From Pseudomonadota bacterium (GTDB lineage Bacteria > Pseudomonadota > Gammaproteobacteria > Acidiferrobacterales > UBA6901): a stretch of DNA of 64,000 bases. The stretch is taken from assembly GCA_021785515.1 (NCBI GenBank), contig JAJYEX010000001.1, positions 514,196 to 578,195 of the forward strand, in the 5' to 3' direction. How positions within the stretch are numbered: the stretch's first letter is position 1; the number at the start of each line of letters is the position of its first letter. Below the pieces are notes generated by a model. That model saw only the letters and a list, made by a program, of their open reading frames with translations, did not search any database and had not been told where the DNA came from. Below, in pieces: positions 47,012 through 64,000 of this stretch. The position numbers were made by a program, and so were the translations under genes.

Positions 47012-47015
47012 CTGA

Positions 47016-48329
47016 GTGCGCGAGAGCTGGGTACGCGAGTTCTCGGTGCTCGTCGGTATCCTGGCGGGCTTTTCCGCAATCGGCCTGATGTTCGGTCACT
47101 TTCTTGTTGCCATCCTATTAGGCCTTGTCATCTATCTGGCGCTTACCCTGCGGCAGCTGTTTCAGCTGCACCGCTGGCTGCAGGGGGGGCGCCGCGAAGA
47201 CATACCGGAGGCAGCAGGCCTGTGGGGGGACGTCTTCGACAGCATCCGGGTACTGATGAAGGAGACGGAACGCCGCGAGGACCAGCTCACGCAGATGCTG
47301 ACGCGCTTCCAGAACACCAGCGCTGCAACCCCGGACGCGATGGTCGTGCTGGCGCACAATGATGCCATCGAGTGGGCCAACCCGGCGGCGGAACGGCTTC
47401 TGGGAATCTCGTTCTCGCGCGACCACGGTCTGCGGGTAACGAATCTGCTGCGCGATCCGGATTTTGCCAACTACCTGAAGAGGGGCGATTTTACCGATGC
47501 GCTAACCGCCCCCTCCCCCGAACATCCCGAAAAGACCCTGACACTGCAGATCATTCCTTTCGGAAGCAGCCAGAAGCTGTTGATCGGGCGCGACATTACG
47601 CGCCTTGAGCGCCTCGAGGTCATGCGCCGCGACTTTGTGGCCAACATCTCCCACGAGCTGCGCACACCCCTCACGGTGATCTCGGGATTCCTGGAGACCC
47701 TTCAGGACATGGAGGCGCCAGCGACCAATGAGCTTCACAAACACCTGGGCACCATGCATGAACAGGCAGTGCGGATGCAGCGTCTGGTAAACGATCTGCT
47801 GACGCTATCCAAGCTCGAGACCGAGCCGCCGCCGGTACACCTGGTCCCGGTTGACGTGCCGGCCATGCTGTCCGGACTGAAGGAAATGGCGGAAATACTG
47901 AGCGGTGATCAGCATCACCGCATCACCCTGGACACCGATCCGGACCTCAAACTGCTGGGTAACGAAGACGAGCTGCGCAGCGCGTTCTCGAACCTGATCA
48001 ACAATGCCGTCCGCTACACACCGGCGAACCAGCCCATCGAGCTGAAGTGGGCCGCCACGACCCAGGGCGCGCGATTCTCGGTCACCGACGCGGGCGAAGG
48101 AATCGCCCCACAGCATATTGTGCACCTGACGGAGCGCTTCTACCGGGTGGACAGCGCCCGCTCGCGCGCCACCGGGGGCACCGGCCTGGGGCTATCGATC
48201 GTCAAGCACGTTCTTCTGCGCCACGACGCGAAGCTGCTGATCGAAAGCACGCCCGGCCACGGCAGCACCTTCAGCTGCCAGTTTCCACCGGCACGCGCGC
48301 AGCGCACTGCCCACAACCGGACGGTGTAA
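47016..48329 (+). CDS. phoR: Phosphate regulon sensor histidine kinase PhoR
   Basis: 437 aa with two N-terminal TM helices, a PAS domain, the H-box FVANISHELRTPLT, and N/G boxes. Confidence 0.9.
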   Translation: MRESWVREFSVLVGILAGFSAIGLMFGHFLVAILLGLVIYLALTLRQLFQLHRWLQGGRREDIPEAAGLWGDVFDSIRVLMKETERREDQLTQMLTRFQNTSAATPDAMVVLAHNDAIEWANPAAERLLGISFSRDHGLRVTNLLRDPDFANYLKRGDFTDALTAPSPEHPEKTLTLQIIPFGSSQKLLIGRDITRLERLEVMRRDFVANISHELRTPLTVISGFLETLQDMEAPATNELHKHLGTMHEQAVRMQRLVNDLLTLSKLETEPPPVHLVPVDVPAMLSGLKEMAEILSGDQHHRITLDTDPDLKLLGNEDELRSAFSNLINNAVRYTPANQPIELKWAATTQGARFSVTDAGEGIAPQHIVHLTERFYRVDSARSRATGGTGLGLSIVKHVLLRHDAKLLIESTPGHGSTFSCQFPPARAQRTAHNRTV

Positions 48330-49070
48330 TCCCGGGGTCACAGACCGGACACAGCGCGGTCAAAGCTAAACGTTAGTCTTGCGGTCCCGTAACTGACATG
48401 CGGGAACGGCGCGTCATGGCGCAGCAGCGAGTTGCGGCCGCCAATTGCGAACGCCAGCATATGGTAATGCATTGTTTCGTGTGCGGGGGTCACACGTACA
48501 GGGATGTTGTATCGGACCCATATGGTCCGAATACCCCACCAAAATTTGCGGTGGACGGCGGTGCCAGGGACCGACGGGGTCTTGGCACCGCTTCCGTTCA
48601 ATCAGAACATATTTCCATCCACTGGCATCCGGTTGACAAAGAAATTGGCTTTTTGATCGCCGGTAAGATGCCATCTCGCATCGCTGCCGCTTTGCGACCG
48701 CAATTGCAATTGAAGCCCGCGCGAAAGATCATAAAAGGCTTGTTTTTGAACGCTATTCCCAACTTCATCGCGGAATCAACCGGGCGCTTTCAATTGACCG
48801 TACCCGTATTTGAGCATATATTTTTCAGATGCTTGTGGATGCGGTGGGGCGGACCCGTAGCGGCGCGATATGCTGGCGCCGGATCGCCACATCATGGCGC
48901 GGATATGGATGCCGCACCCCCGCGCAGAAGCACTTTCGATTTGCAGGTGCCGGGCACCGGTTGATTCCCGCCCTGCCTGTCACCGGCCACCGCGTATGGA
49001 CCTCCCAACCGCAGCACAACCCTCAAGCTTCCCGGGGCCGGATCCTCTGGCCCGATAGCCGCTGTGAGCG

Positions 49071-50441
49071 GTGGACGGTCGACGGCCGACCCCGGCGATC
49101 GGCACAGCGCTGCTTTCTGGCATGAGCGGACGCGAATCGGGTTCGCCCGGCGACCAGAGCGAGGAATTGGCGCGCGTCCTGAATCGCGACTGCCATTGCT
49201 TGAGCATCGATGCTGACGCATTGCAGCGCGAGCTGGAACAAGATCCCCAGAACAGCGACCTCTATCATTCCATCATTGAATCGAGGCCATACCTGTTCAG
49301 CGCCTCGGCAGTGTTCGTATCGCGGCCGGACGTCGAACGCATGGCCTCCGTTATCCGTGCGGTTGAAAGCGTTGTGGCCCTGCCCGGCTACCGGGAGACG
49401 GTGCTGGCCTGGGGACCAGCCATCGCCCGGATCGACCACGGTCCGCGCGGCGTGTTTCTCGGCTTCGACTTTCACCTTGGGACGGAAGGACCACGACTCA
49501 TTGAAATCAACACCAACGCTGGCGGAGCCCTTTTGAACACCGTGCTGGCCCGGGCCCAGCGCGCCTGCTGCGATCAGGTCCGGCAGCTCGCCACGGGACC
49601 CGTGGACCTGCGCCTGCTTGAACAGGTGTTTTACGACATGTTTCTTGCTGAGTGGCGCCTGCAACGCGGTGGCGGCCAGCCCCGGGTCATCGCCATCGTT
49701 GACGATGATCCTTCGCAACAGTACCTGTATCCCGAATTTGTGCTGTTTCGGCAGCTATTTATGCGTAACGGTCTGCGGTGCGTCATCGTCGACCCCGGGA
49801 ACCTGATCTACGACGGAACTGCGCTGCGGCATGAAGGCGAGACCATAGATGTTGTGTACAACCGCCTTACCGATTTCGCGCTGGAGCAACCGCACCATGC
49901 GGCCCTGCGTGCCGCCTATGCCGAAGGTGCCGTCGTGCTGACGCCCCACCCACGCGCCCATGCGTTGTATGCTGACAAGCGTAACCTGTCGGTACTCACC
50001 GACGCGCATCTTCTGGAAACCTGGGGAGTGGATGAAGCCACACAACGCATCTTGCAGACGGGTATTCCCCATACCACGCTCATCGAGCCGGACCGCCATA
50101 CCGGCCTGTGGACCGACCGGAGAAAATTTTTCTTCAAGCCGGTGGCCGGCTACGGCAGCAAGGCCGCATACCGCGGGGACAAGCTTACCAAGCGCGCGTG
50201 GTCCGAGATTGTCGCCGGCCAGTTTGTGGCTCAGGAGACCGTGCCGCCGAGCGAACGCCGTCTGCGCGTCGGTGGTGAGGAAGTGAGTCTCAAGCTTGAT
50301 ATGCGCAATTACGTCTACAACGGCGCCGTGCAGCTGCTGTCGGCAAGGCTGTACCGGGGCCAGACTACCAATTTCCGGACACCGGGCGGCGGGTTCGCAC
50401 CTGTTTTTCTGCCCGACGCGTCCTGCGACCGGCGCCTCTGA
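49071..50441 (+). CDS. Uncharacterised ATP-grasp-type ligase with glutathionylspermidine-synthase-like layout
   Basis: GFDFHLGTEGPRLIEINTNAGG resembles the RFDF...KLLEYNADTP pre-ATP-grasp motif. It also has YADKRNLSVL and a C-terminal NFRTPGGGFAPV. The start is either the GTG at 49071 or the ATG at 49122, and neither has a clear SD. Confidence 0.5.
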   Translation: MDGRRPTPAIGTALLSGMSGRESGSPGDQSEELARVLNRDCHCLSIDADALQRELEQDPQNSDLYHSIIESRPYLFSASAVFVSRPDVERMASVIRAVESVVALPGYRETVLAWGPAIARIDHGPRGVFLGFDFHLGTEGPRLIEINTNAGGALLNTVLARAQRACCDQVRQLATGPVDLRLLEQVFYDMFLAEWRLQRGGGQPRVIAIVDDDPSQQYLYPEFVLFRQLFMRNGLRCVIVDPGNLIYDGTALRHEGETIDVVYNRLTDFALEQPHHAALRAAYAEGAVVLTPHPRAHALYADKRNLSVLTDAHLLETWGVDEATQRILQTGIPHTTLIEPDRHTGLWTDRRKFFFKPVAGYGSKAAYRGDKLTKRAWSEIVAGQFVAQETVPPSERRLRVGGEEVSLKLDMRNYVYNGAVQLLSARLYRGQTTNFRTPGGGFAPVFLPDASCDRRL

Positions 50442-50483
50442 GGCCGCAGGAAACGGTGGCCGTTAACGCGACCGGCTGATGCG

Positions 50484-50939
50484 ATGTATAAGCGGTGTGC
50501 GCGCATTCTGTTTGTAGACACGGACCGGCTTTCCTGCTCGCTCATGGCATGGGCCTGGTCACGGCAGCTGGGTGCGGACCGCATCGAGGCGCGCACCGCG
50601 GACATCGGCCTGCAGGCGGTGAACCCGGCCATCCAGACTGTCATGCGGGAAGTCGGGATCGATATCACGGACGTGCATTCGCCCCGCCTCACTTCGGACA
50701 TGCTGGCCTGGGCCGATCTGGTGGTCACCATCTCCGGCAGCGATTCTAAGACCGCTCCGGCGCCACTGCCGCCGGGCGTCCAGGGGAAACTCTGGCGGCT
50801 TGGCAACGCCGGGGCGACCCCGGACCTCGAGACCTGGCGCAGGTTGCGCGACACGATCCGTGATCGGATAGAAAGCATGATCGGCGGCATGAACATGCTC
50901 AAGCGGATGGACCAGGATGAACCGGCTGAGGGTGAGTAG
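50484..50939 (+). CDS. ArsC/LMW-PTP-fold protein with all catalytic residues substituted (pseudo-phosphatase)
   Basis: It aligns along its length with thioredoxin-coupled ArsC. ILFVDTDRLSCSLMA replaces I-x-F-[IV]-CTGNSCRSQMA, VVTISGSDSKTAP replaces VVTLCSDADNNCP, and LGNAGA replaces FDDPAG. Confidence 0.7.
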   Translation: MYKRCARILFVDTDRLSCSLMAWAWSRQLGADRIEARTADIGLQAVNPAIQTVMREVGIDITDVHSPRLTSDMLAWADLVVTISGSDSKTAPAPLPPGVQGKLWRLGNAGATPDLETWRRLRDTIRDRIESMIGGMNMLKRMDQDEPAEGE

Positions 50940-51003
50940 TGGATCTGGCCCGCCAGACCCTTTGTAACACACTGATTATTAATATACTTAAATATTCACA
51001 TTC

Positions 51004-51042
51004 CTGTCATATTTGTTCATCAAACTGTCATATGACAGTTGG
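51004..51042 (+). promoter_or_regulatory. Tandem Pho boxes of the pstS promoter
   Basis: CTGTCAT-ATTT-GTTCATC (51004-51021), then AAA, then CTGTCAT-ATGA-CAGTTGG (51025-51042). A candidate -10 element, CATACT, lies at 51045-51050. Confidence 0.7.
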
Positions 51043-51087
51043 AACATACTGCCCGCCGCAAACTTACCCAAATTCCTGGAGAGCAAC

Positions 51088-52134
51088 ATGTTAAATTCTG
51101 TGCATAGAAAGGGTCGCCTGTCAGCCGGCCGACTCGCGGTCGCCATTGGCACCGCTGCGCTTGCGCTGGGGCTGGCCACTGCCCGAGCGGATGAAATCAC
51201 GGGTGCGGGCAGCACCTGGGTATATCCCCTGGTTATCAAGTGGGCTGTCGCGTATCAGCATAAGACCGGCACCCAAATCAATTATCAGGGCATCGGTTCG
51301 GGCGGCGGAATTGCCCAGATCAATGCCGGCACCGTTGCGTTTGGGGCAAGTGACATGCCGCTGACGCCGGCCTACCTGCGCAAACATCACCTGATCCAGT
51401 TCCCGACGGCAATCGCCGGCGAAGACCTTGTCATGAACATTCCCGGAATCAGGCCAGGCGAGCTGATTCTGAGCGGCCCGGTTGTTGCCAAGATCTATCT
51501 TCACGAGATCGCCAAGTGGAATGACCCGCGCATCCAGGCCCTGAACCCGCACGTAAAACTGCCCAATCTCGACATCGCGGTTGTCCACCGCTCTGACGGT
51601 TCCGGCACGACTTTCACCTTCACAAACTACCTGTCCAAGGTGAGCCCGGAATGGAAGAAGCGGATCGGCGCCAACACCGTCGTCGCCTGGCCCACTGGCC
51701 TCGGTGGCAAGGGTAACGAGGGCGTCGCCGCCTATGTGCAGCGTATTCGCGGTGCGATCGGCTACGTCGAGTACGCCTACATCCTCGAGAACCACATGAC
51801 CTATGCCCGGATGTACAACCGCGAGCACCGGCTGGTGAGCCCGAGCCTGGCCGGATTCCAGGCGGCCGCCTCACACGTCGACTTCACCAAGGCGCATGAC
51901 TTCTATGTCATCCTCACCGACCAGCCCGGTCCGACCACTTGGCCGATTTCAGGCTGCACGTGGCAGATCCTGCGCACCAATGCGCCCAAAGCCAAGAACG
52001 AGAAAGTGGTGAAATTCTTCAGCTGGGGCTTCGAGCATGGCCAGAGCATGGCACGGTCCATCGCCTTCGGACCTCTGCCTCCGCCCACGGTCCGGGCGAT
52101 TCAGGCCTACTGGATGAAACATCTGGGTATATAA
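51088..52134 (+). CDS. pstS: Phosphate ABC transporter substrate-binding protein PstS
   Basis: The ATG at 51088 follows GGAGAG. It has the signal peptide AVAIGTAALALGLATARA and the motif GAGSTWVYPL. The track start at 51013 lies inside the Pho boxes. Confidence 0.9.
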   Translation: MLNSVHRKGRLSAGRLAVAIGTAALALGLATARADEITGAGSTWVYPLVIKWAVAYQHKTGTQINYQGIGSGGGIAQINAGTVAFGASDMPLTPAYLRKHHLIQFPTAIAGEDLVMNIPGIRPGELILSGPVVAKIYLHEIAKWNDPRIQALNPHVKLPNLDIAVVHRSDGSGTTFTFTNYLSKVSPEWKKRIGANTVVAWPTGLGGKGNEGVAAYVQRIRGAIGYVEYAYILENHMTYARMYNREHRLVSPSLAGFQAAASHVDFTKAHDFYVILTDQPGPTTWPISGCTWQILRTNAPKAKNEKVVKFFSWGFEHGQSMARSIAFGPLPPPTVRAIQAYWMKHLGI

Positions 52135-52199
52135 GTCCGTGAAGTATTTGGGCATCTAAGTCGCGGGTACCGGATCATTCGTCGCGATTTAGGTGAAAG

Positions 52200-52229
52200 A
52201 CGGGGCCGTTTCGGCCCCGTTCTTTTCTT
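52200..52229 (+). terminator. Intrinsic terminator/attenuator between pstS and pstC
   Basis: ACGGGGCCG-TTT-CGGCCCCGT (perfect 9-bp stem, 52200-52220) followed by TCTTTTCTT. Confidence 0.6.
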
Positions 52230-52300
52230 GGCCCCTACGCTCTGATATAACCTGCCCCGACCATTTCCCTTACACCAGACCAGCCTGTCCGGGAGATTTC

Positions 52301-53254
52301 GTGGAAAAACCGCCTTCGCCGCCTCGCCTGACCCGTCTATGGGACCCCCTGTTCAAGGGGACAACGGCAGCCTTGGCGTACATGGTGCTCATACTGCTGG
52401 TGGCAGTTTGTCTCGCCTTGCTGCACCAGGGCGCACTGGCGTTCCGGACCTTTGGCTGGCATTTCCTCGTCAGCAAGGCCTGGGATCCCGCCAACAACCA
52501 CTTTGGCGCCCTGATTCCGATCTACGGCACCCTGGTCAGTTCGCTGATTGCCATCGTTATCGCAGTCCCGGTCAGTCTGGGCATCGCACTGTTTATCACC
52601 GAACTGGCGCCACGGTGGCTTCGCCAGCCGGTCTCGGCCGCCATCGAACTGCTCGCCGCTATCCCCAGCATCATCTTCGGGATGTGGGGCCTGTTTACTT
52701 TTGCTCCCTGGTTTTCCGGTTACGAACCCTGGATCAGCGACCATCTGGGATCCATTCCGGGGGTCGGTGCCCTGTTCCGCGGACCGCCGTTTGGAATCGG
52801 CATGCTGACGGCCGGGATCATATTGGCCATCATGATCATTCCCTTCATTGCCTCCATCATGCGCGAAGTGTTTCTGCTGACACCGCCGCTGCTTAAGGAA
52901 TCGGCCTATGGCGTAGGCGCTACCACCTGGGAAGTGCTGCGCAACGTGGTGTTGCCGTACACGCGCACGGCGGTGGCCGGCGGCATCTTTCTGGGTCTGG
53001 GACGGGCGCTGGGCGAGACGATGGCCGTAACGTTCGTCATTGGCAACGCCCACAGTATCAGCGCCTCACTGCTCAACCCCGGCTATTCGATCGCCGCGGC
53101 GCTAGCCAATGAGTTCACCGAAGCCTTCTCCCCACTGTACAAGTCCTCGCTGATTGCCCTGGGATTCATTCTGTTCATCATAACTTTCATCATCCTCGTC
53201 CTGGCGAAGCTGCTCCTTCTGCGGCTTGAGCGTGCGCAGGGCGAATCGACATAG
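52301..53254 (+). CDS. pstC: Phosphate ABC transporter permease PstC
   Basis: Polytopic permease containing an EAA-like loop. The GTG at 52301 follows GGGAGA and is preferred over the track start 52193, which would include the terminator hairpin. Confidence 0.85.
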   Translation: MEKPPSPPRLTRLWDPLFKGTTAALAYMVLILLVAVCLALLHQGALAFRTFGWHFLVSKAWDPANNHFGALIPIYGTLVSSLIAIVIAVPVSLGIALFITELAPRWLRQPVSAAIELLAAIPSIIFGMWGLFTFAPWFSGYEPWISDHLGSIPGVGALFRGPPFGIGMLTAGIILAIMIIPFIASIMREVFLLTPPLLKESAYGVGATTWEVLRNVVLPYTRTAVAGGIFLGLGRALGETMAVTFVIGNAHSISASLLNPGYSIAAALANEFTEAFSPLYKSSLIALGFILFIITFIILVLAKLLLLRLERAQGEST

Positions 53255-53263
53255 GGCACCGCC

Positions 53264-54103
53264 GTGGATTTGCGCTACCTCAGACGACGCTTTACCAACG
53301 TGTTCAACCTCGGGATGGCGGTGGCGACCACCGTCCTGGGACTTTTCTGGCTGCTCTGGATCCTCTACACCACCGCGCGCTTCGGATACCACAATCTCAA
53401 TCTGGCGCTGTTCACCCAGGATACCCCTGCTCCCGGAGCCCCGGGCGGGCTGCGGAACGCCTTCGTAGGCAGCCTGATCATGATTGGCGTCGCCATCGCA
53501 GTGGGGACACCGGCGGGCGTCCTGGCTGGCACCTATCTGGCGGAATTTGCCGGACGCCGACGCATCGGCGAAATCGTGCGCTTTTTCAATGATATCCTTC
53601 TGAGCGCCCCTTCCATCGTCGTCGGGCTGTTCGTCTATTCAGTGGTGGTGTCAGTGACCGGCAATTTTTCCGGGCTCTCCGGGGGGCTGGCGCTTGCCAT
53701 CGTTCTGCTTCCGGTCGTCGTACGCACAACGGATGAGATGTTGCGCCTGGTGCCATCGACCATGCGGGAAGCCGCCATGGCGCTGGGCTCCCCATACTGG
53801 AGGGTGGTTGTTCAGATCACCTATCGGGCGGCACGCTCGGGGATCCTGACCGGGGTATTGCTCGGGGTCGCGCGCATCAGCGGGGAAACGGCCCCGCTGC
53901 TTTTTACGGCCCTGAATAACCAGTTCTGGAGCACGAATCTATCTAAACCCATGGCAAACGTACCAGTCACCATATTCCAGTTCGCCCTGAGTCCCTACCA
54001 GGGATGGCAGCATCTGGCGTGGGCTGGCGCGCTGGTCGCCACTTTCGCGGTTCTTGGGCTAAGCATTTTTTCCCGCTTCCTCATCAGGCAAAGGAACAGT
54101 TAA
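53264..54103 (+). CDS. pstA: Phosphate ABC transporter permease PstA
   Basis: 279-aa polytopic protein with a GTG start, containing MREAAMALGSPYWRVV. Confidence 0.9.
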   Translation: MDLRYLRRRFTNVFNLGMAVATTVLGLFWLLWILYTTARFGYHNLNLALFTQDTPAPGAPGGLRNAFVGSLIMIGVAIAVGTPAGVLAGTYLAEFAGRRRIGEIVRFFNDILLSAPSIVVGLFVYSVVVSVTGNFSGLSGGLALAIVLLPVVVRTTDEMLRLVPSTMREAAMALGSPYWRVVVQITYRAARSGILTGVLLGVARISGETAPLLFTALNNQFWSTNLSKPMANVPVTIFQFALSPYQGWQHLAWAGALVATFAVLGLSIFSRFLIRQRNS

Positions 54104-54877
54104 ATGAGCGGTACAGCGCCACCGGAACCGAAGATCAGCGTGCGCAACCTGAACTTCCATTACGGCAAGTTCCATGCACTGAAGAACATCAGCCTGGACG
54201 TTGCCGAACGCGAGGTCACGGCCTTCATTGGCCCCTCCGGCTGCGGAAAGTCCACGCTTCTGCGGGTCTTTAACCGCATGTACGCGCTTTATCCGAACCA
54301 GGTGGCGACCGGGGAAGTGCTTCTGGACCAGCAGAATATCCTTGATCGAAGGCAGGATCTGCACCATCTGCGTTCCCGGGTCGGCATGGTCTTTCAGAAA
54401 CCGACTCCGTTCCCCATGTCGATCTACGACAACATCGCCTTCGGCGTGCGCCTGCATGAGCGGCTGAAAAAGGGGGCCATGGATGACCGGATCGAGGCGG
54501 CGTTGCGGCAGGCGGCCCTGTGGGACGAAGTCAAGGACAAGCTCAAGCAGAGCGGTATGAGCCTGTCTGGCGGACAGCAGCAGCGGCTGTGTATTGCACG
54601 TGCAATCGCTGTCAGACCGGACGTTTTGCTGCTGGACGAACCGGCATCGGCCCTCGATCCGATATCGACCCTCAAGATCGAAGAGCTGATTTATGAGCTG
54701 CGACAGAATTACACGATCGTCATCGTGACGCATAATATGCAACAGGCCGCGCGCGTGTCCGACTATACTGCGTTCATGTACCTGGGGGAACTGGTGGAGT
54801 TTGGTGACACCAACTCGATCTTCACCAACCCGAGCCAGAGGCAGACGGAAGACTACATCACCGGCCGGTACGGCTGA
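54104..54877 (+). CDS. pstB: Phosphate ABC transporter ATP-binding protein PstB
   Basis: Walker [10 protein letters not shown], signature LSGGQQQR and Walker B LLLDEP. Confidence 0.95.
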
Positions 54878-54893
54878 TCAAGGAGCACAGGCC

Positions 54894-55613
54894 ATGGAGC
54901 CCATTCATACGCACATTTCCCGCCAGTTCAACGCCGAACTTGAGGACATCCGCACGCGGGTTCTGCAGATGGGCGGACTGGTCGAGCGGCAGATAGAACA
55001 CGCGATCGAATCCCTGGTGAAGGGCGACGTGAACCTTGGAGAAGCGGTCATCATGGACGACACCAAGGTGAACGCCATGGAGGTGTCCATCGATGAGGAA
55101 TGCAACCAGATCATCGCCAAGCGCCAACCGGCGGCCAGCGACCTGCGGCTGGTGGTAGCGGTAATCAAGACCATAACGGATCTGGAGCGTATCGGCGACG
55201 AAGCCGAGAAGATTGCCCGCATGGCGGTGCGCCTGGCGCAGGAGGAACGGCCGAAAAGCAACTACATGGAGATCCAGGCGCTAGGAAACAGGGTGCAGCA
55301 GATGCTGCGTGACGCCCTGAACGCCTTTGCTCGCCTGGACGCAACGGCTGCGGTCCACTCCGCGCAGGAAGACATCAAGGTGGACCAGGATTATGACGGC
55401 GTGATGCGCCAGATGATCACGTTCATGATGGAAGATCCCCGGACAATCAGCCGCATGCTGAACGTAATCTGGGCCGCGCGCGCGCTCGAACGCATCGGGG
55501 ACCACGCCAGCAACATCTGCGAGTATGTAATCTATCTGGTCAAGGGCAAGGACGTGCGGCACGTCAGTCTCGAGCAGATCGAGAAGGAAGTGCTGGGCGG
55601 AAAGAACGTCTAG
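54894..55613 (+). CDS. phoU: Phosphate signalling complex protein PhoU
   Basis: The ATG at 54894 follows AGGAG (MEPIHTHISRQFNAELEDIR). Two PhoU repeats contain E(R)IGD motifs. Confidence 0.9.
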   Translation: MEPIHTHISRQFNAELEDIRTRVLQMGGLVERQIEHAIESLVKGDVNLGEAVIMDDTKVNAMEVSIDEECNQIIAKRQPAASDLRLVVAVIKTITDLERIGDEAEKIARMAVRLAQEERPKSNYMEIQALGNRVQQMLRDALNAFARLDATAAVHSAQEDIKVDQDYDGVMRQMITFMMEDPRTISRMLNVIWAARALERIGDHASNICEYVIYLVKGKDVRHVSLEQIEKEVLGGKNV

Positions 55614-55640
55614 CTGCCTGTCCGGCTCCGTCGGCCGGGT

Positions 55641-55871
55641 TCAGGCGTGATGAACCTGGGACTCTTCGTCCCTAAGCGCATCCATGATGCGGCGCCGGAT
55701 AAGTACCGGCAGATATTCCATGATTTTTGCGCCGGCCTTGAGTTTCTCCAGCTCCGACTCATACAGCGCCTCTATTTTACCCTCAGGCAGTCCGCACTGA
55801 AGTGAAATAGCGTGGATCAGTTCATGGTGCACCGCGCGCTCTTTCTCATTCTGGTAGAGCTCGTTTGACAT
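55641..55871 (-). CDS. Small protein resembling DUF3562
   Basis: The ATG at 55871 follows GGGAGG. The product is MSNELYQNEKERAVHHELIHAISLQCGLPEGKIEALYESELEKLKAGAKIMEYLPVLIRRRIMDAL. Confidence 0.55.
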   Translation of the reverse strand: MSNELYQNEKERAVHHELIHAISLQCGLPEGKIEALYESELEKLKAGAKIMEYLPVLIRRRIMDALRDEESQVHHA

Positions 55872-56179
55872 AGTGCCTCCCTTGTCGATTATTGATTTCC
55901 CATATCCGCCCGCCGCCACTGCCGCTGCAGTTTACTCCGACCAGACCCTAGAGGCCCGTCAATTTTTGGGGTGGGCATACGCCGGTCGACAGATACATTT
56001 CTAAATAATAAGAAAGAAAATTTTGTTAATGCAATACTAAATGTTAGATTTGTAAGTATCTGGTCTTATATGAATTTATTCTGACTTGTCCGTCCAGGTA
56101 TCCGGCTATTCCTGACGGCGCACTGGCCCCAGGCAGCCCGGTGTCCCCGGACATGCAGCGGTGCGATAATGAAACATTT

Positions 56180-56197
56180 CTGTCATGTTTGATGTTT
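56180..56197 (+). promoter_or_regulatory. Pho box upstream of ppk
   Basis: CTGTCAT-GTTT-GATGTTT, 47 nt upstream of the ppk ATG. Confidence 0.5.
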
Positions 56198-56243
56198 ATA
56201 CTCAGCAAGTGCAACGTGTTTGCGCCGAAAGGGCCTTAACCCG

Positions 56244-58385
56244 ATGAGCGTGGCTGAACCCGCCGTTCTAGCGGCCCAGCAATCTCCCCCCCTGAGCAAC
56301 CGGGAACTGAGTTTGCTGGCATTCAACGGCCGGGTACTTGAGCAAGCCCGGGATGTGAACACCCCCCTCCTTGAGCGCCTGCGGTTTCTCTGCATTTCCA
56401 GCACCAATCTCGATGAATTCTTCGAGATTCGCAAGGCACGCCTACAGGAGCAAGTGGCCTCCGGGTCGATGGGCACCGGACCTGACAACCGCAACCCCCA
56501 CGAACTGCTGCAGCAGATCAGCGCTGAAACCCACAAACTGGTCAATGAACAGTACCGGGTGCTCAACGATGAGCTTTTCCCGGCGTTGGAGCGCGAGAAT
56601 ATCCGCTTCCTGCGGCGCACTGAGTGGGATCCGGCGGCCACGGAGTGGGTAAAAAACTATTTCGAGAACGAGCTGCTGCCCATGCTCACCCCCATGGGTC
56701 TCGATCCGGCACATCCTTTTCCGCGCATCCTGAACAAGAGCCTGAATTTTCTGGTCACCTTGGAAGGGAACGACGCCTTCGGAAGACGCAGCGGCATCGC
56801 CATCGTGCAGGCGCCCCGGGCCTTGCCGCGCGTGATCCGGCTGCCCAAGGAATGCGGTGGCGGACCCCACGCATTCGTCTTCCTCACCTCCATCATCCAT
56901 GCCCATGTAGACGACCTGTTTCCGGGAATGCGGGTCACCGGATGCTACCAGTTCCGCGTTACCCGGAATTCCGAGCTGTTCGTGGATGAAGAAGAAGTTC
57001 AGGACCTCCTGCGCGCACTGGAAGGCGAGCTGGCAGCACGCCGCTACGGAGACTCCGTGCGTCTGGAAATCGCTGACAACTGCCCTATGGAAACAGCCGC
57101 CTACCTGCTCCGCCAGTTCGAGCTGGAGCCACAGGACCTTTACCAGGTCAACGGACCAGTGAATCTCAACCGCCTGATGGCAGTTGCCGACGTGGTAGAC
57201 CGGCCTGACCTGAAGTACCCGCCCTTCACCCCGGGCCTGCCCAGACGGCTGGCACGTGCCAGCCGTCTGTTTGACGCCATCCGCCAAGAAGACATTTTGC
57301 TGCATCACCCCTTTGATTCATTCGCGCCGGTGGTGGATTTCGTCCGCCAGGCGGCAGCCGACCCCCGGGTGCTCGCTATCAAGCAGACTCTCTACCGTAC
57401 CGGGCCACAGTCGGCGCTGGTAGACGCATTGGTCACTGCGGCCCGTGCCGGCAAGGAAGTCACCGTGGTCATAGAGTTGCGAGCGCGCTTTGATGAAGAG
57501 GCGAATATTGGGCTTGCCACGGTTCTCCAGGAGGCCGGGGCGCATGTGGTCTACGGCGTGGTCGGCTACAAGACCCACGCCAAGATGATACTGGTTGTGC
57601 GCCGCGAACGTGGCCATCTGCGCCACTACGTGCACCTGGGCACGGGCAATTACCATGACCGTACGGCACGCGCCTACACCGATTTCGGTGTATTTACCTG
57701 TTCCGATGCCATCGGCGAAGACGTAAACAAGCTGTTCCGGCAACTGACCAGCCTCGGGCGGGTACCAAAACTGTCCAAACTTCTGCAGTCTCCGTTCACC
57801 CTGCACACAGAACTGCTGCGCCGGATCAAACATGAGGCCGAGTGCGCGCTTCAGGGGCGGCCGGCACGCATCGTCGCCAAGCTCAATGCGCTGACCGAAC
57901 CCCAGATCATCCAGGCCCTTTATGACGCCTCTGCGGCCGGCGTGCGTATCGACCTGATCGTGCGCGGCATCTGCTGCTTGCGCCCGGGCTTGGCCGGAAT
58001 CTCCGAGAACATAAGGGTCCGGTCGGTCGTAGGCCGGTTTCTCGAGCATACCCGCGTGTACTGGTTTCTGAATGGCGGACGCGGCCCCGCAGGCGACAGG
58101 AGCATCCAGGATCCGGAAATCGTGCCCGGGAGCGGAGAGGTCTTCTGCGCCAGCGCCGACTGGATGGACCGCAATTTTTTCAGGCGGGTCGAAATCGCCT
58201 TCCCGATCGAGAACCGCAAGCTGCACGAACGAGTCGTACGGGAAGCGCTCAACTATTACCTGCGCGATAACACCCATGCATGGACCCTCGACGCCGACGG
58301 TCACTATCACCGTCTGACTCCCGAAGGCACTGAGCCCTGGTCAGCCCAGGCCAAACTCGTTCAGGAGCTGTCCGAGTCAACCTAG
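56244..58385 (+). CDS. ppk: Polyphosphate kinase 1
   Basis: NRELSLLAFNGRVLEQA, two PLD-like HKD regions (KTHAKM), and SADWMDRNFFRRVE. The ATG at 56244 is preferred over the TTG at 56220. Confidence 0.95.
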   Translation: MSVAEPAVLAAQQSPPLSNRELSLLAFNGRVLEQARDVNTPLLERLRFLCISSTNLDEFFEIRKARLQEQVASGSMGTGPDNRNPHELLQQISAETHKLVNEQYRVLNDELFPALERENIRFLRRTEWDPAATEWVKNYFENELLPMLTPMGLDPAHPFPRILNKSLNFLVTLEGNDAFGRRSGIAIVQAPRALPRVIRLPKECGGGPHAFVFLTSIIHAHVDDLFPGMRVTGCYQFRVTRNSELFVDEEEVQDLLRALEGELAARRYGDSVRLEIADNCPMETAAYLLRQFELEPQDLYQVNGPVNLNRLMAVADVVDRPDLKYPPFTPGLPRRLARASRLFDAIRQEDILLHHPFDSFAPVVDFVRQAAADPRVLAIKQTLYRTGPQSALVDALVTAARAGKEVTVVIELRARFDEEANIGLATVLQEAGAHVVYGVVGYKTHAKMILVVRRERGHLRHYVHLGTGNYHDRTARAYTDFGVFTCSDAIGEDVNKLFRQLTSLGRVPKLSKLLQSPFTLHTELLRRIKHEAECALQGRPARIVAKLNALTEPQIIQALYDASAAGVRIDLIVRGICCLRPGLAGISENIRVRSVVGRFLEHTRVYWFLNGGRGPAGDRSIQDPEIVPGSGEVFCASADWMDRNFFRRVEIAFPIENRKLHERVVREALNYYLRDNTHAWTLDADGHYHRLTPEGTEPWSAQAKLVQELSEST

Positions 58386-58435
58386 ACCTGGAAAGAGCAT
58401 ATCGACTTCGGTGCGCCCTATAGGCCAGCACCGGC

Positions 58436-59971
58436 CTAGCTGAACTCGAGGGTGATCCTGGCCGCCCTGAGCCAGGCCGCTTCCTGCACCAGATCCGCCT
58501 GGGTCAGCGGATGTCTTCCCAGCCACCCGCGCGCAAACCTAATTTTCAAGGATCGCCTGCCCGCCTGCAGACGCAGGCCGCGCGGGGTACTCCCGGAGCG
58601 GGACCGGTGCAACAGCACGGCAAGCCGCAACAGGATGCAAAGACGTCTGGCAGCCGAGCGCTGGGGCTCCGGTAAAGCGTCAAACACCTCTGCCGGAAAC
58701 TTACGGCGGTGTCCGCGGATGATGGCCGCAAGCTGTCTCTGCGTCTGCCACGAAAACCCGGGCAAATCGGATTTTTCCGCCAGGTAGGCGCCGTGCTTGT
58801 GGTACTGGTTGTGCGCAACAGCCAGCCCAATCTCGTGCAGACGCGCCGCCCAGTTCAGCAGGCGCTCATCATCTTCGGTCAGTCCCCATTTACGCGCCAC
58901 ATACTCGAATCCGTGTCTGGCGGTGCGCATCACCCGCTGGGCCTGGGCGAGATCCGCGTGAAAACGACGGGCGAGCACCGCGACCGTGTGCTCGCGCACA
59001 TCCTCGCGTCGCAAACGGCCCGCCAAATCGTAGAGCAACCCTTCCCGCAACGCGCCGTCGGCAACCAGCATGCGTTTGATGCCAAGCGACTCGTGCGCCG
59101 CCAGCAGTATGGCCACCCCCCCGGGGAATACCGCCGCCCGGTCAGCAGCCAGTCCGGGAAGCTTGAGCCGATCCAGATGTCGCGCTGACACCAGCGCCGC
59201 CCGCAGCCGGCGCAGCGCAGTGGGCGTGATCGTACCGTCAGTCCAGCCCTGTGCCCGCAATACCGACCGTACCGCACGTATCGTGCCCGACGTACCGATC
59301 ACCGTCTCCCAGCCATGGCGAAACTGTGCCTGCACCGGCCGCAGCTCGAGTCGCGCGGCCGTTTCAGCACGGCTCATGGCCTTGTCGCTGAGGACACCGT
59401 CGCCGAAGTACCCTTCGCTCAGGCTGACACAACCCATGTACAGGCTTTCCATGGTGATGGCATCCAGCCCCTGACCGAGAATGATCTCCGTGCTTCCACC
59501 GCCGATATCGATGACAAGCCGTGGTCGTCCGTCATCCGGCCAGCTGCGGGCCATGCCCTGATAAATCAGCCTGGCCTCCTCCCGTCCTGCGATGATATCT
59601 ATGGGATGACCGAGGACGCGCTCTGCGGCATTCAGGAATTCGGCGGCATTGTGCATACGCCGCAGCGTATTCGTTCCCACCGCACGGACACTTCCACGCG
59701 GGAAGCCGCGCAGACGCTGTCCGAAGCGGGCGAGACAGGCGAGCGCCCGGGCACGGGCCGCCGGCAACAGATGGTCGCGCTCATCGAGACCGCCTCCCAG
59801 CCGGACCATCTCCTGCAGTCGGTCAATCACATGCAGTCGCCCGTCCTGCATCTGGGCCACAATCAGATGAAAGCTGTTGGAACCAAGATCAAGTGCCGCC
59901 ACGGCACGGGACGCCCCCCCCAGTCTGCGGAGCGTGCGGCCACCCTGGGCAGCGGCAACCCGCGGCGTCAT
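58436..59971 (-). CDS. ppx: Exopolyphosphatase (Ppx/GppA family)
   Basis: 511 aa with AALDLGSNSFHLIV and DIGGGSTE actin-fold motifs plus a C-terminal HD-like domain. Confidence 0.9.
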   Translation of the reverse strand: MTPRVAAAQGGRTLRRLGGASRAVAALDLGSNSFHLIVAQMQDGRLHVIDRLQEMVRLGGGLDERDHLLPAARARALACLARFGQRLRGFPRGSVRAVGTNTLRRMHNAAEFLNAAERVLGHPIDIIAGREEARLIYQGMARSWPDDGRPRLVIDIGGGSTEIILGQGLDAITMESLYMGCVSLSEGYFGDGVLSDKAMSRAETAARLELRPVQAQFRHGWETVIGTSGTIRAVRSVLRAQGWTDGTITPTALRRLRAALVSARHLDRLKLPGLAADRAAVFPGGVAILLAAHESLGIKRMLVADGALREGLLYDLAGRLRREDVREHTVAVLARRFHADLAQAQRVMRTARHGFEYVARKWGLTEDDERLLNWAARLHEIGLAVAHNQYHKHGAYLAEKSDLPGFSWQTQRQLAAIIRGHRRKFPAEVFDALPEPQRSAARRLCILLRLAVLLHRSRSGSTPRGLRLQAGRRSLKIRFARGWLGRHPLTQADLVQEAAWLRAARITLEFS

Positions 59972-60945
59972 CTGGTCCTCCCCGAATGTCCGCGTCCAGT
60001 GTCACGCGTCATGCCATAGAGGCTGAGCTGCCGGGCCAGATCCCGCGGCGCGCGCAACACCTGTCGCGCGCGCGCGCCCACATAGCGTCGGCCAATGACC
60101 CCGCGCAGGAAGCAAGCTTCCTGCCAGTTCCGTTCCGCGATCGCCCCCAAGCCGGCGCGCAACCTATCGCGCAACCCTTGGGGCACAGCGTCCTTCAGCA
60201 TCGGCGACAGCCGCTGCGCCATCACGTGGCGGTCATGCAGATCCCCCAGGCAATCCTGCAACTCCCTCAGCGGGGCGAGCACATCGTTCGCCACCTGTCC
60301 CTGCACCAGCGGTTCGACCAGATAGCGCAGCTTTTTAACCGCGATACGCGCTGCGTGCACCTCGGCTTCATCGGCGCGGGGGCCCATTCGCCGCAGACTC
60401 CCGGAGAGCACGGTGGCATATTCGCGCACGCGCCGCGCCGCCTCACTGGCGAACCGGATTTCCATCCCCGCCGCGTCAGGATCCGATGCCGCCGGCCCCG
60501 ATTCCTCGAGCGCATGGCGCAATTTGTGGGCCAGTCGATCGAATTCGGGTAGCGCCTCGTGGCGGACCGTACGGTAGGCCGCCTTGCGTTCAGATGCCAG
60601 CGACTTCCGCAACCAGCGTCTCCCAGGCCGCTCGGCTGGCGGGACACCCCGCTTGCCAGAATCTATCCATTCAATCTGGACCTCGGCGTCGCGGGCAGCA
60701 TTGGTGACATGCGCCACGGCCCGCAGACGCTTTCCGAACCGCTCATAGATCTCCCCCGACAGCAGCGGCGCATAGGCACGCAAGATGACGCGCAGCCGTC
60801 GCAGGGCCACCCGCAGATCATGCATTGCTCGTGGATCAGATTCGTGTTCCAACCGCAGACGGGCATTGGTAGCCGCCTTCAGGTTCCGACGTGCCAGCCG
60901 ACGCACCGCCCGGGCGGCAGGAAGATCCAGGATGGCCGATCCCAC
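59968..60945 (-). CDS. CHAD domain protein
   Basis: 325-aa helical protein with repeated CHAD-type motifs (MHDLRVALRRLR, HAARIAVKKLRY). It has a GTG start and overlaps the ppx start by 4 nt. Confidence 0.8.
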   Translation of the reverse strand: MGSAILDLPAARAVRRLARRNLKAATNARLRLEHESDPRAMHDLRVALRRLRVILRAYAPLLSGEIYERFGKRLRAVAHVTNAARDAEVQIEWIDSGKRGVPPAERPGRRWLRKSLASERKAAYRTVRHEALPEFDRLAHKLRHALEESGPAASDPDAAGMEIRFASEAARRVREYATVLSGSLRRMGPRADEAEVHAARIAVKKLRYLVEPLVQGQVANDVLAPLRELQDCLGDLHDRHVMAQRLSPMLKDAVPQGLRDRLRAGLGAIAERNWQEACFLRGVIGRRYVGARARQVLRAPRDLARQLSLYGMTRDTGRGHSGRTR

Positions 60946-60948
60946 TTT

Positions 60949-61443
60949 TCAGCGCCCCAGCCGCCGTAACATGGCTGGCACAAAAAACCATGTCAGCAAA
61001 CCCGACCCGGCAACGGGCTTCGCGGAAAACTCGATGAGACAGGCGCCGCCCTTCTTGAGCGGAATAAATGATTCGCGGCACCGCGCAAGCAGCCAGCTGG
61101 CCAAGCCGCCCAGGTCTGGCTCATGCCCCACCGCCACCAGCACCGCATCTGCTGGCAACCGCCCCAACCAGGTCAAAAAGGCAGACCGGCGGCTCCCCGG
61201 AGCCAGGGCGGCCAGGTTCTGGACATCCGCAAAGGAATAGGTCTCGGCGATGATTCGCGCTGTCTGCTGCGTCCGCACGGTGGGACTGGCTGCGATATGT
61301 GTGATGTGCGGAACCAGGATTTTCAGACCCCTGGCCGCCGCCCGCATGCGCCGGGCGCCTTGCGCAGTGAGCCGTCGGTCCCAGTCGCGTTCAGCGGACC
61401 CGCGGTCTTCCGCAGCAGCATGGCGAATCAGAACAAGCTTCAT
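60949..61443 (-). CDS. SixA-type histidine phosphatase family protein
   Basis: Start at the ATG at 61443 (MKLVLIRHAAAEDRG), with the RH catalytic motif and VGHEPDLG. The track ORF extends to 61548. Confidence 0.75.
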   Translation of the reverse strand: MKLVLIRHAAAEDRGSAERDWDRRLTAQGARRMRAAARGLKILVPHITHIAASPTVRTQQTARIIAETYSFADVQNLAALAPGSRRSAFLTWLGRLPADAVLVAVGHEPDLGGLASWLLARCRESFIPLKKGGACLIEFSAKPVAGSGLLTWFFVPAMLRRLGR

Positions 61444-61498
61444 CGCGGCCAGTATACCCAGAATCAAATCGGCTCCGGTGACTGCTGCGGTCGAAGAA

Positions 61499-62607
<1,109 letters not shown>

Positions 62608-62636
62608 AGTGACTACTGGCACGTCTGTCGCCTTAA

Positions 62637-63560
62637 CTATTTCTTGGCCTTGGCAGCTTTCTTCGCTACCTTCTTGGCCGCTTTCTTCGGCGCCGCTTTC
62701 TTCGCTACCTTCTTGGCCGCTTTCTTCGGCGCCGCTTTCTTCGCTACCTTCTTGGCCGCTTTCTTCGGCGCCGCTTTCTTCGCTACCTTCTTGGCCGCTT
62801 TCTTCAGTGCCTTCTTGGCGGCCGCCGGAGCAGCGCCTCTGGCCGATGCCGCCCTGGCTTGACCGGCCGAGGCCGCGGCACTCACCGCGACACCCGCAGC
62901 GGCCAAGGGCCGCATCTGGGCCTCGATAATGTCGCTGATCGATTTGAAAATATCACTGATGCTGCCGACACCGCGGGCGGTGCGCAACTTGCCCTGTGCC
63001 TTGTAATACGACACCAGCGGAGCAGTCTGCTCCTCGTACACCTTGAGCCGGTTACGGACGGTCGTTTCATTGTCGTCCGAACGGTGCTGCAGGCTCCCCC
63101 CGCATTTGTCACACTTTCCGGGAACCTTTGTGGGTGTGTAGTAAACGTTATAGATCGCACCACAACTGCCGCAGGTGCGCCGCCCCGTAAGGCGTTTCAT
63201 CAATACTTCGATATCCACGTCCACCAGCAGCGCAAGTTGAAGCGGCTGTCCGACACGGGCCAGCATTGCATCGAGTGTTTGCGCCTGGGGAATGTTCCTC
63301 GGGAATCCGTCCAAGATGAACCCACCCTTGGAATCGGGCGTAGCCAAACGCTCCTGGATCATCCCCAAAACAACGTCATCCGCCACCAATTGCCCCGAAT
63401 CCATCGCCGCCTTGGCCTTTTTCCCAAGTTCGGTGCCCGCTGCAACCGCTGCCCTCAAAAGGTCACCGGTGGAGATCTGGGGAATTTTATATTTTTCGAT
63501 CAGTAACTTAGCTTGAGTTCCTTTCCCGGAACCCGGCGCTCCCAGTAGTACAATTCGCAT
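62637..63560 (-). CDS. adk: Adenylate kinase fused to a C-terminal Ala-rich linker and a (P)AKKA lysine-rich histone-H1-like tail
   Basis: Core residues 1-~215 carry GAPGSGKGTQA and a Cys4 lid (CGSCG...CDKCG). Residues 248-307 are AKKALKKAAKKVAKKAAPKKAAKKVAKK...AKAKK in the same frame, with no intervening stop. Confidence 0.9.
   Translation of the reverse strand: MRIVLLGAPGSGKGTQAKLLIEKYKIPQISTGDLLRAAVAAGTELGKKAKAAMDSGQLVADDVVLGMIQERLATPDSKGGFILDGFPRNIPQAQTLDAMLARVGQPLQLALLVDVDIEVLMKRLTGRRTCGSCGAIYNVYYTPTKVPGKCDKCGGSLQHRSDDNETTVRNRLKVYEEQTAPLVSYYKAQGKLRTARGVGSISDIFKSISDIIEAQMRPLAAAGVAVSAAASAGQARAASARGAAPAAAKKALKKAAKKVAKKAAPKKAAKKVAKKAAPKKAAKKVAKKAAPKKAAKKVAKKAAKAKK
62661..62805. repeat. Perfect 39-bp tandem repeat, 3 full copies plus 28 bp of a fourth, inside the adk tail
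   Basis: The unit CTTCGCTACCTTCTTGGCCGCTTTCTTCGGCGCCGCTTT occurs at 62661, 62700 and 62739 with identical sequence. The fourth copy, from 62778, diverges at 62806. Each unit encodes KKAAKKVAKKAAP on the minus strand. Confidence 0.9.
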
Positions 63561-63822
63561 GGCATTCTTCTCGCTTTAGGTTCTTGAATGCGAACCCACC
63601 TTTTTATGATACTCCCCAATCGGGGCCCAGTGCCCCGGTAAGCTACCTTTTGGCCATGCTGTCGTCAATGCTTTTGGTGCCATAAATAGGGCCTATCCAT
63701 ACATATAATCTTTGCAGTGATCCACTTTGGGGATTTCAGTTAATCTACCTCCCCGCACTGCCCGGCTGGACCGTTCGCCAGCGTCACGGCCCGGCCGACA
63801 TGGGGAACAAGTTCAGACAACC

Positions 63823-64000
63823 ATGAACCAGATACCGGATTTCAGCGAAACCGAGATATGGGTCATTCGCTCAACCGTAAATCAGCGCTACGGAAAGGCT
63901 GTTGAGCTTCAGCTGGCAGACGCCGAGCTGAAGCTGGATCCCGCGGCTTCGGTCCTCGCAACCTGTCCGGCTGTGTTCTGGAGCGAGCGGGGCGCCAGTT
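63823..64000 (+). CDS. Hypothetical protein, 5' fragment running off the right edge
   Basis: An open frame from the ATG at 63823 (MNQIPDFSETEIWVIRSTVNQRYGKAVELQLADAELKLDP...) with no stop before the window end. I recognise no family. Confidence 0.3.
   Translation, partial: MNQIPDFSETEIWVIRSTVNQRYGKAVELQLADAELKLDPAASVLATCPAVFWSERGAS

Follow-up and report, generated by a model that had tools for sequence, protein, structure and literature searches.

We describe an adenylate kinase (Adk) that carries a histone H1-like polycationic tail, encoded by the gene adk near the end of a 64,000-nucleotide stretch (the window) of contig JAJYEX010000001.1, from a Pseudomonadota bacterium of the Acidiferrobacterales. 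Past its catalytic core the protein continues in frame through an alanine-rich linker into 60 residues of which almost half are lysine, and this fusion is kept throughout the closest relatives of the window protein and in many sulfur-oxidising bacteria. Judging from homologue comparisons, the tail is under selection for charge and composition, not for sequence. By analogy with other polycationic tails, we lean towards a reading in which the active enzyme would be tethered by its disordered polycation to a polyanion phase of nucleoid and polyphosphate (polyP). Textbooks present adenylate kinase as a small, soluble protein that diffuses freely and sets the energy charge of the cell; its fusion to an H1-like polycation, kept in whole lineages and invented more than once, suggests that the site of adenylate equilibration within the bacterial cell can matter.

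A zinc-lid adenylate kinase with a polycationic tail

The core of the window protein matches the Pfam family ADK (PF00406) over residues 5-190 (1e-55, 188.5 bits against a cut-off of 26.8) and ADK_lid (PF05191) over residues 127-162 (1.8e-15, 57 bits against a cut-off of 26.6). It also aligns over residues 1-214 with the NCBIfam adk equivalog NF001380, a profile of 216 positions (298.1 bits, cut-off 251), and scores 251.1 on TIGR01351 (cut-off 168). In an alignment of 38 sequences (A1), which also served as input for AlphaFold2 (AF2), the P-loop residues G7-T15 and the arginines R36, R88, R123, R127, R128, R160 and R171 are present and invariant, as is the GFPR motif, and the four lid cysteines C130, C133, C150 and C153 are invariant both there and in a second alignment (A2). 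The closest solved chains are zinc-lid Adks of the Bacillus or ancestral-reconstruction type (5g3y, 1zin); the matched solved chains are at most 245 residues long, and a tail of this kind is therefore absent from solved Adks. An earlier sequence-only reading of this DNA had proposed a complete Adk core with a GAPGSGKGT P-loop and a Cys4 zinc lid, and this is borne out at every point. By these profile matches and motifs the window protein is a bona fide member of the long-type zinc-lid Adk family, and the gene most likely encodes the working adenylate kinase of the cell (ATP + AMP <-> 2 ADP), with a product of about 32 kDa (predicted mass 32.07 kDa, against 22.98 kDa for the core alone).

Beyond the core comes a linker, residues 215-247 (QMRPLAAAGVAVSAAASAGQARAASARGAAPAA), with 16 alanines and three arginines and neither lysine nor any acidic residue; the tryptic peptide of the junction and linker region is PLAAAGVAVSAAASAGQAR. 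The last 60 residues hold 29 lysines, 23 alanines, 4 valines and 3 prolines (K 48%, A 38%, P 5%) and not a single aspartate, glutamate or arginine, so that an exact recount agrees with the 29 lysines counted earlier, just as the alanine-rich linker noted before the tail is present. In the AF2 model the confidence score (predicted local distance difference test, pLDDT) is 80-93 for the core, whose last helix extends to about residue 230, and below 50 for residues 224-307; the tail itself, at about 35-41, has no predicted secondary structure. The tail thus combines tandem K/A/P-rich repeats with predicted disorder (pLDDT <50), as do those of AlgP and PhaF. Lysine makes up 2.7% of 10 neighbouring proteins, and at that rate the probability of at least 29 lysines in 60 residues is about 3e-29, so the lysine content of the tail is not a matter of chance. 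Across the six frames of the 64-kb window the adk tail is the sole K/A-rich stretch.

The DNA truly encodes the fusion, as the sequence-only reading had held: the open reading frame (ORF) runs through all 307 codons, P0121, a database entry encoded on an NCBI contig of 852 kb, is identical over 307 residues, and the best 120 homologues have their tails in frame. Independent assemblies, together with these in-frame tails, rule out an assembly artefact or a frameshift. A further allele, P0001, has 281 residues and is otherwise 100% identical to the window Adk, minus exactly two 13-residue units, so the copy number of the repeat is polymorphic. The 39-bp tandem repeat that encodes these units (Table 1) is the source of the variation in tail length, and its slippage would both generate and resize the tail.

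Conservation, repeated gain and restriction of the tail

Conservation of the tail was followed through two homologue searches. The first, with a query that included the tail, gave as its best 120 homologues proteins of 264-392 residues and 68-100% identity, named 'Acidiferrobacterales bacterium' or 'Gammaproteobacteria bacterium', and every one of the 120 carries an in-frame tail. Their extensions past the RPLA motif are 44-172 residues long, with 12-95 lysines, 0-6 acidic residues and a net charge of +12 to +91; pooled, they contain 39% K, 33% A and 9% P and only 1.2% acidic residues, and nearly all of them end in a basic tetrapeptide, most commonly KKKK, KKTK or KKRR. Inspection of orthologue C-termini for presence and length of the tail, which had been proposed as a check of the fusion, therefore found tails throughout. 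The junction is equally constant: RPLA is found in 120/120 homologues, and Q215, R217, P218, L219 and A220 are invariant among the 38 aligned sequences. The distance from RPLA to the first KK ranges from 9 to 55 residues and the repeat units vary by lineage; charge and composition are kept and sequence is not. A search with the tail alone returned only five weak matches, since correction for composition takes the signal away.

The second search queried 1.84 billion cluster representatives with the core alone. Among the full-length single-domain representatives with an identity of at least 55%, about 23 of 28 have K-rich tails, and K-rich extensions of about 100-320 residues were seen on 59 of the 95 representatives sampled overall. 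Many distant tailed Adks share an E[IV]RPLE junction, and a rough neighbour-joining tree, with seven parsimony changes, places the tailed sequences mostly in one large clade. The best 120 matches of a profile built from 17 distant tailed Adks are all 379-555 residues long; named carriers among them are Thioalkalivibrio denitrificans (446 residues), the gill symbiont of Solemya pervernicosa (418 residues) and Thiobacillus sp. (400 residues). For many of these profile matches the precomputed annotation of the tail is Pfam HC2, 'histone H1-like nucleoprotein', and on the tail of the relative P0292 HC2 reaches 52.2 bits (gathering cut-off 40); the match reflects composition, not homology. The net charge of the core (residues 1-210) is +2 to +11 in the Acidiferrobacterales-type Adks, with a median of +8, against a median of -2 in the longer-tailed relatives, so shorter tails go with more basic cores.

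A core-tail module, consisting of E[IV]RPLE.KV, 10-20 residues and then [ST].I[AS]GG.[VI].[KR], is shared by P0160, P0161, P0165, P0166, P0174, P0191, P0194, P0205, P0208, P0222 and P0247. In the window lineage only RPLA is left of it, followed by the alanine-rich linker.

Lysine tails are also found on other Adk backbones. We scanned genome contigs with the lysine-repeat pattern AKKVAKKA, which matches many lysine-repeat proteins; among the matches listed were at least one close relative of the window protein (L001) and also independently tailed Adks (L008, L033-L035). The tailed Adk of Tardiphaga (308 residues, lid-less core) matches NF010381 from end to end, tail included, with 457.9 bits (cut-off 426); this profile of 335 positions itself contains the tail. 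The Tardiphaga gene lies in the order secY-adk-rpsK. Two Bacteroidota tailed Adks, of 349 and 391 residues, likewise have lid-less cores, and their context is hpt-adk-obgE. Members of NF010381 (PRK13808) resemble the window Adk in joining an Adk to a long lysine-rich C-terminal tail, but their core is short and lid-less and the gene stands in secY-adk-rpsK, whereas the window core is long and has a zinc lid. The window Adk reaches 201.4 bits on this profile, mainly over residues 1-125, against the cut-off of 426, and so is not a member. Judging from core types and profile scores, the tails of the window-type and NF010381-type Adks are of independent origin, and lysine tails have been gained on at least two Adk backbones besides the zinc-lid type. 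At least one further housekeeping enzyme that produces AMP, valyl-tRNA synthetase (ValRS), has comparable lysine tails: C-terminal profile positions 908-1041 of the 1044 in the curated ValRS family NF011492 match residues 168-306 of the window Adk (E = 5.6e-9).

In Microbulbifer and two Pseudomonadales metagenome-assembled genomes (L016, 12299-13129; L017, 11964-12569; L028, 10933-11994) adk has no tail, and a separate protein containing 28-32% lysine is encoded immediately after it or with hemH in between; in L028 this protein matches Pfam HC2 with 99.8 bits. These adk-hemH-HC2-like loci may represent the fusion in split form, in a biased sample picked by the lysine-repeat pattern from one lineage.

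In the loci compared, the tail is a property of Adk. In the window and in the flanks of L001 and L043-L049, which add about 150 kb (about 210 kb in total), the Adk tail is the sole K-rich tail, with one exception, a short K/R-rich N-terminal stretch (PKARAKTKTRAKTKTKARTARPKAKPKNA) on the pyrophosphate (PPi)-dependent phosphofructokinase (PPi-PFK) of L044 (9191-9277, minus strand), which is absent from the PFK orthologues elsewhere. This restriction to a single protein argues against a generic low-complexity expansion, the explanation to which the same tail on unrelated proteins of the genome would have pointed; apart from the PFK stretch none turned up in the 64-kb window or the related flanks.

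No paper on a lysine-tailed Adk was found in our literature search, which left most subscription journals outside. The earlier statement that no Adk with such a tail had been described therefore agrees with the literature as searched, but it needs amending for sequence databases, where the architecture is common, with one lineage curated as NF010381, and unstudied as far as the search showed. Annotation pipelines label such proteins just 'adenylate kinase', which makes the architecture effectively invisible in databases.

A proposed polyanion tether and competing readings

We hypothesise that the tail would act as a non-specific electrostatic tether of an otherwise freely diffusing enzyme. The enzyme would be parked on a polyanion phase, made of nucleoid DNA or RNA with embedded polyP condensates, and the equilibration of AMP, ADP and ATP would be concentrated there. 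AlgP, PhaF, Hc2, histone H1 and the tail of Caulobacter Ppk1 suggest, by analogy, both the binding to polyanions and the localisation. The K/P/A tail of AlgP binds DNA and localises the protein to polyP granules; when ppk is mutated, AlgP is distributed over the nucleoid (PMC9239181, PMC11894788). In Caulobacter crescentus, a basic tail of 22 residues is required for the granule localisation of Ppk1 (PMC3806658), and the PAKKA repeats of M. smegmatis Ku are reported to modulate DNA binding (PMC3553676).

The likeness to these systems has its limits. The tails of AlgP and PhaF in Pseudomonas are, like that of the window Adk, disordered C-terminal tandem repeats rich in K, A and P, with a copy number that varies between strains; however, they are borne by the coiled-coil or phasin domain of a structural protein, whereas here the tail is on a catalytic housekeeping enzyme. 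The tails of AlgP and PhaF repeat the unit KPAA, that of the window Adk the 13-mer KKAAPKKAAKKVA; the window tail (60 residues, +29) is also shorter than the 154-residue repeat region of AlgP, a protein with a net charge of +55. Caulobacter Ppk1 shares with the window Adk a basic C-terminal appendage on a phosphotransfer enzyme, but its 22 residues form no repeat array and belong to PPK1 itself, whereas the PPK1 of the window is without such a tail. M. smegmatis Ku and the ValRS of NF011492 have, as here, low-complexity K/A(/P) C-terminal repeats on a standard enzyme. Ku and ValRS act on DNA or tRNA, which gives an obvious rationale for a nucleic-acid-binding tail, whereas the substrates of Adk are free nucleotides. 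Actinobacterial TopA also bears C-terminal lysine repeats. Eukaryotic Adk isoforms, for example the trypanosome flagellar Adks, are localised by terminal extensions for local adenylate buffering, but these extensions are N-terminal, specific targeting sequences, unlike a polycationic repeat tail. The architecture of the window Adk would work like the H1-like tails of AlgP, PhaF, Hc2 and Ku, transferred to an enzyme of nucleotide metabolism, and it is a member of none of these groups.

Several points weigh against the tether. We infer binding and localisation of the tailed Adk from composition alone, and the window tail reaches no Pfam model at E <= 0.1, HC2 (PF07382, gathering cut-off 40 bits) included. 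Tailed cores are not systematically more basic than tail-less ones (median net charge -2 versus -1, Mann-Whitney p = 0.32), and there is no sign of an adaptation of the whole protein to polyanions outside the Acidiferrobacterales group. In addition, the tail in the first query favours tailed matches, the library of representatives may prefer long cluster members, and the restriction to Adk is drawn from about 210 kb of sampled DNA.

More specific readings name the target of the tail, or deny it a function; the likelihoods that we attach to DNA, to polyP, to RNA or ribosomes and to no function partly overlap with that of the general tether. The first of them, that the tail binds the nucleoid, so that Adk is anchored on DNA and, as an abundant protein, moonlights as an H1-like nucleoid-associated protein neutralising DNA charge, seems to us possible but doubtful. 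It can call on a composition like that of the C-terminal domain of histone H1, on the HC2 label given to the longer tails of relatives, and on the tails of AlgP, PhaF and Ku, which bind DNA (PMC9239181, PMC11894788, PMC3553676). The separate HC2-like gene that in Pseudomonadales and Microbulbifer lies at one or two genes' distance after an adk without a tail points the same way, but this split arrangement was found through the lysine-repeat pattern and is thus selection-biased and limited to a single lineage. Nor is it obvious why DNA should be the place for Adk of all enzymes.

We regard as unlikely the more specific proposal that the tail docks Adk on polyP granules and that, together with PPK1, it would form a granule-bound polyP:AMP phosphotransferase recharging adenylates, with PPK1 making ATP from polyP and ADP and Adk turning ATP and AMP into 2 ADP. 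The ingredients are there: PPK1 is encoded in the same genome as the tailed Adk, H1-like or basic tails do reach polyP granules in AlgP (PMC9239181) and Caulobacter Ppk1 (PMC3806658), and PPK1 plus Adk of E. coli gives polyP:AMP phosphotransferase activity (review PMC3163519). The genomic position also lends itself to this proposal, since the window adk edges a phoBR-pstSCAB-phoU-ppk1-ppx-CHAD island, with the same layout in L001 and L043. From adk, the order on the minus strand is adk, hemB, a SixA-like gene (whose product scores below the NCBIfam cut-off), CHAD and ppx, with ppk1 convergent (56220-58385, plus strand; all four PPK1 domains present). These are the neighbours as the sequence-only reading had mapped them, with distances from adk of about 2.7 kb to ppx and about 4.3 kb to ppk1.

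The whole of 46322-62563 is a contiguous Pho/polyP island holding phoB, phoR, two ORFs without Pfam matches (48398-48964 and 49071-50441), pstSCAB, phoU, ppk1, ppx, CHAD, the SixA-like gene and hemB. It is flanked by ubiE/ubiB on one side and by adk on the other.

The transcription signals of the locus separate adk from this island. A terminator-like hairpin begins 30 nt past the adk stop codon (62607-62586) with an 8-bp stem, seven of whose pairs are G-C, and TTTT after it. The strong terminator claimed earlier, at 62581-62607, is present as a hairpin with a T-run. Upstream of adk, an alignment of six orthologous regions (A3) has an invariant ATTGACG and a conserved TAG(C/T)TT; a stricter promoter scan made no call there, and the candidate promoter rests on the conservation across the six loci. 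The hemB gene, the SixA-like gene, CHAD and ppx overlap in a tight pack, a unit from which adk is set apart by this terminator and the conserved promoter-like site. A scan for Pho boxes gave 6 matches against 3.8 expected, none of them near adk, and thus no evidence that phosphate regulates the gene, with an E. coli consensus that may not apply to this organism.

The comparative context adds to this. Only in the window, in L001 (95% Adk identity) and in L043 (77%) are ppx and ppk1 next to adk; no ppk or ppx lies within 10 kb of the tailed adk in L045-L049, and neither gene occurs in L044 or in the shorter flank of L008. In L044 the order adk-hemB-PhoU_div-PHO4, then ubiE and ubiB, places another phosphate module in the same slot. 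This could be counted in favour of a polyP link, and it means that the position between hemB and ubiE holds different phosphate modules by lineage. L045 has adk-hemB-rsmJ and L046 is without hemB. Its own terminator, its own promoter-like site, the missing Pho box and the patchy linkage to ppx and ppk1 together make the link between adk and polyP weak. Moreover, the independently tailed Adks occur in secY-adk-rpsK and hpt-adk-obgE contexts, and the PPK1, PPX and CHAD proteins of the window have no complementary acidic or basic tails; such matching tails and core basicity were two tests that gave no support to docking on polyP.

The sequence-only reading had proposed that the tail could dock Adk on polyP granules or on the nucleoid. 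What survives of it is a fusion that is real and maintained, an H1-like composition and the precedents. The argument from the neighbourhood does not survive, as the transcription signals are separate, the ppx/ppk1 linkage is confined to the closest subclade and no Pho box is near. The polyP story specific to that reading is unsupported by the comparative context, and polyP would be one candidate target, not the demonstrated one. A broader proposal, which we consider improbable, would see in the tailed Adks a large overlooked bifunctional class of sulfur-oxidising and other bacteria, whose H1-like tail puts an abundant enzyme into nucleoid/polyP condensates, either as a polyP:AMP phosphotransferase with PPK1 or as a nucleoid polycation coupled to the adenylate energy charge. 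If this were true, the repeated gain of tails by zinc-lid Adks, by the lid-less Adk of Tardiphaga and by those of Bacteroidota would reflect a general advantage of adenylate equilibration at a polyanion phase.

Quite improbable, in our view, is a tail that binds RNA or ribosomes and so places Adk near translation, where aminoacyl-tRNA synthetases release AMP. The tailed adk of Tardiphaga lies in the ribosomal operon secY-adk-rpsK, the Bacteroidia one adjoins obgE, and ValRS, an AMP-producing enzyme of translation, has a similar appendage (NF011492), but the Acidiferrobacterales-type adk is not in a ribosomal operon. Genes for Adk are often found in ribosomal operons, tailed or not, which also counts against this reading.

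Finally, a neutral or nearly neutral low-complexity expansion by repeat slippage, with no specific function, would fit repeats that are 100% identical and hence recent, a copy number that differs between near-identical strains and a tail sequence that is not conserved, but it is highly improbable given tails in 120/120 of the best homologues and in most related 50%-identity clusters, the near exclusion of acidic residues (1.2%) with retention of the basic C-termini KKKK, KKTK and KKRR, the independent tails on at least two other Adk backbones, the lack of a comparable tail on an estimated 190 or so neighbouring genes in related loci, and the codon cost of lysine at 61% G+C, with 2.7% lysine in neighbouring proteins.

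The tailed Adk ties in with current work on polyP/nucleoid condensates (AlgP, Hfq). With one enzyme, one tail and simple assays, it is a natural, easily truncated test case, and a neat one for specialists in bacterial cell organisation.

Locus features and the divergent pyrophosphate cluster

The features of the adk locus are collected in Table 1. Two antisense ORFs on the plus strand, 62597-62929 (110 residues) and 62644-62862 (72 residues), with translations of the kind LPSWPLSS... and FFATFLAAFF..., are mechanical by-products of the repeat and were rejected as genes.

Table 1. Features of the adk locus, in window coordinates.
Feature	Position	Strand	Detail	Basis
adk coding sequence	62637..63560	-	307 codons, ATG to TAG; stop codon 62639-62637	ORF list and sequence
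Adk core	62919..63560	-	residues 1-214, long type with zinc lid	Pfam, NCBIfam, AF2, solved chains
P-loop GAPGSGKGT	63516..63542	-	residues 7-15	read off the translation; invariant in A1
Cys4 zinc lid	63102..63173	-	C130/C133 to C150/C153	Cys positions; ADK_lid match
Junction motif Q215-M-R217-P218-L219-A220	62901..62918	-	end of the last helix of the core	homologue alignment
Ala-rich uncharged linker	62820..62918	-	residues 215-247	composition, AF2
Polycationic tail	62640..62819	-	residues 248-307, net charge +29	composition, AF2
39-bp tandem repeat	62656..62805	-	encodes KKAAPKKAAKKVA	Tandem Repeats Finder: 3.8 copies, 100% identical
Intrinsic-terminator-like hairpin	62576..62607	-	AGGCCCGG-CAAAGT-CCGGGCCT, then TTTTGTCAAA	terminator scan
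Candidate sigma-70 promoter of adk	63640..63668	-	TTGACG-17 nt-TAGCTT	conservation across six loci
Start of divergent neighbour small118	63823..64000	+	cut by the window end	tblastn

The neighbour of adk that is conserved across lineages is a divergent cluster of PPi-PFK, H+-pumping pyrophosphatase (H+-PPase) and pyrophosphatase (PPase), not ppx/ppk1. All Acidiferrobacterales-type loci have this cluster in the form small118, PPi-PFK, small73, a membrane pyrophosphatase and a YfcE-like phosphodiesterase, with 660 bits on NF010675 for the PFK and 1146 bits on NF001951 for the membrane pyrophosphatase (H+/Na+). Across lineages the divergent cluster spans 4909-9733 in L043, 4668-9754 in L048, 5587-9655 in L049 and 5681-9861 in L008, and small73 is an uncharacterised protein of about 73 residues. 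The window holds the first 59 codons of small118, which are 71% identical to small118 of L043; this protein of about 118 residues has no Pfam or NCBIfam match and is 48% identical between Acidiferrobacterales and the Solemya symbiont. Divergent from adk are Metallophos, soluble PPase, H+-PPase, PFK and small120 in the Solemya symbiont, PPase, H+-PPase and PFK in L049, PFK and H+-PPase in L008, and a soluble PPase in T. denitrificans.

Lineages whose Adk core is only about 52-58% identical to the window Adk still share 73-80% identity in PFK and PPase. A PFK gene was not found next to adk in any of the retrieved loci with a tail-less Adk; the association is confounded by shared ancestry. The pairing of adk with PPi-PFK and H+-PPase looks like a module for adenylate and pyrophosphate that is inherited together in sulfur-oxidising autotrophs. 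The reverse adenosine 5'-phosphosulfate (APS) reductase/ATP sulfurylase route uses up AMP and PPi; Adk would supply the AMP, and PPi-PFK and H+-PPase would supply or use the PPi. Such a module accounts for the synteny and not for the tail.

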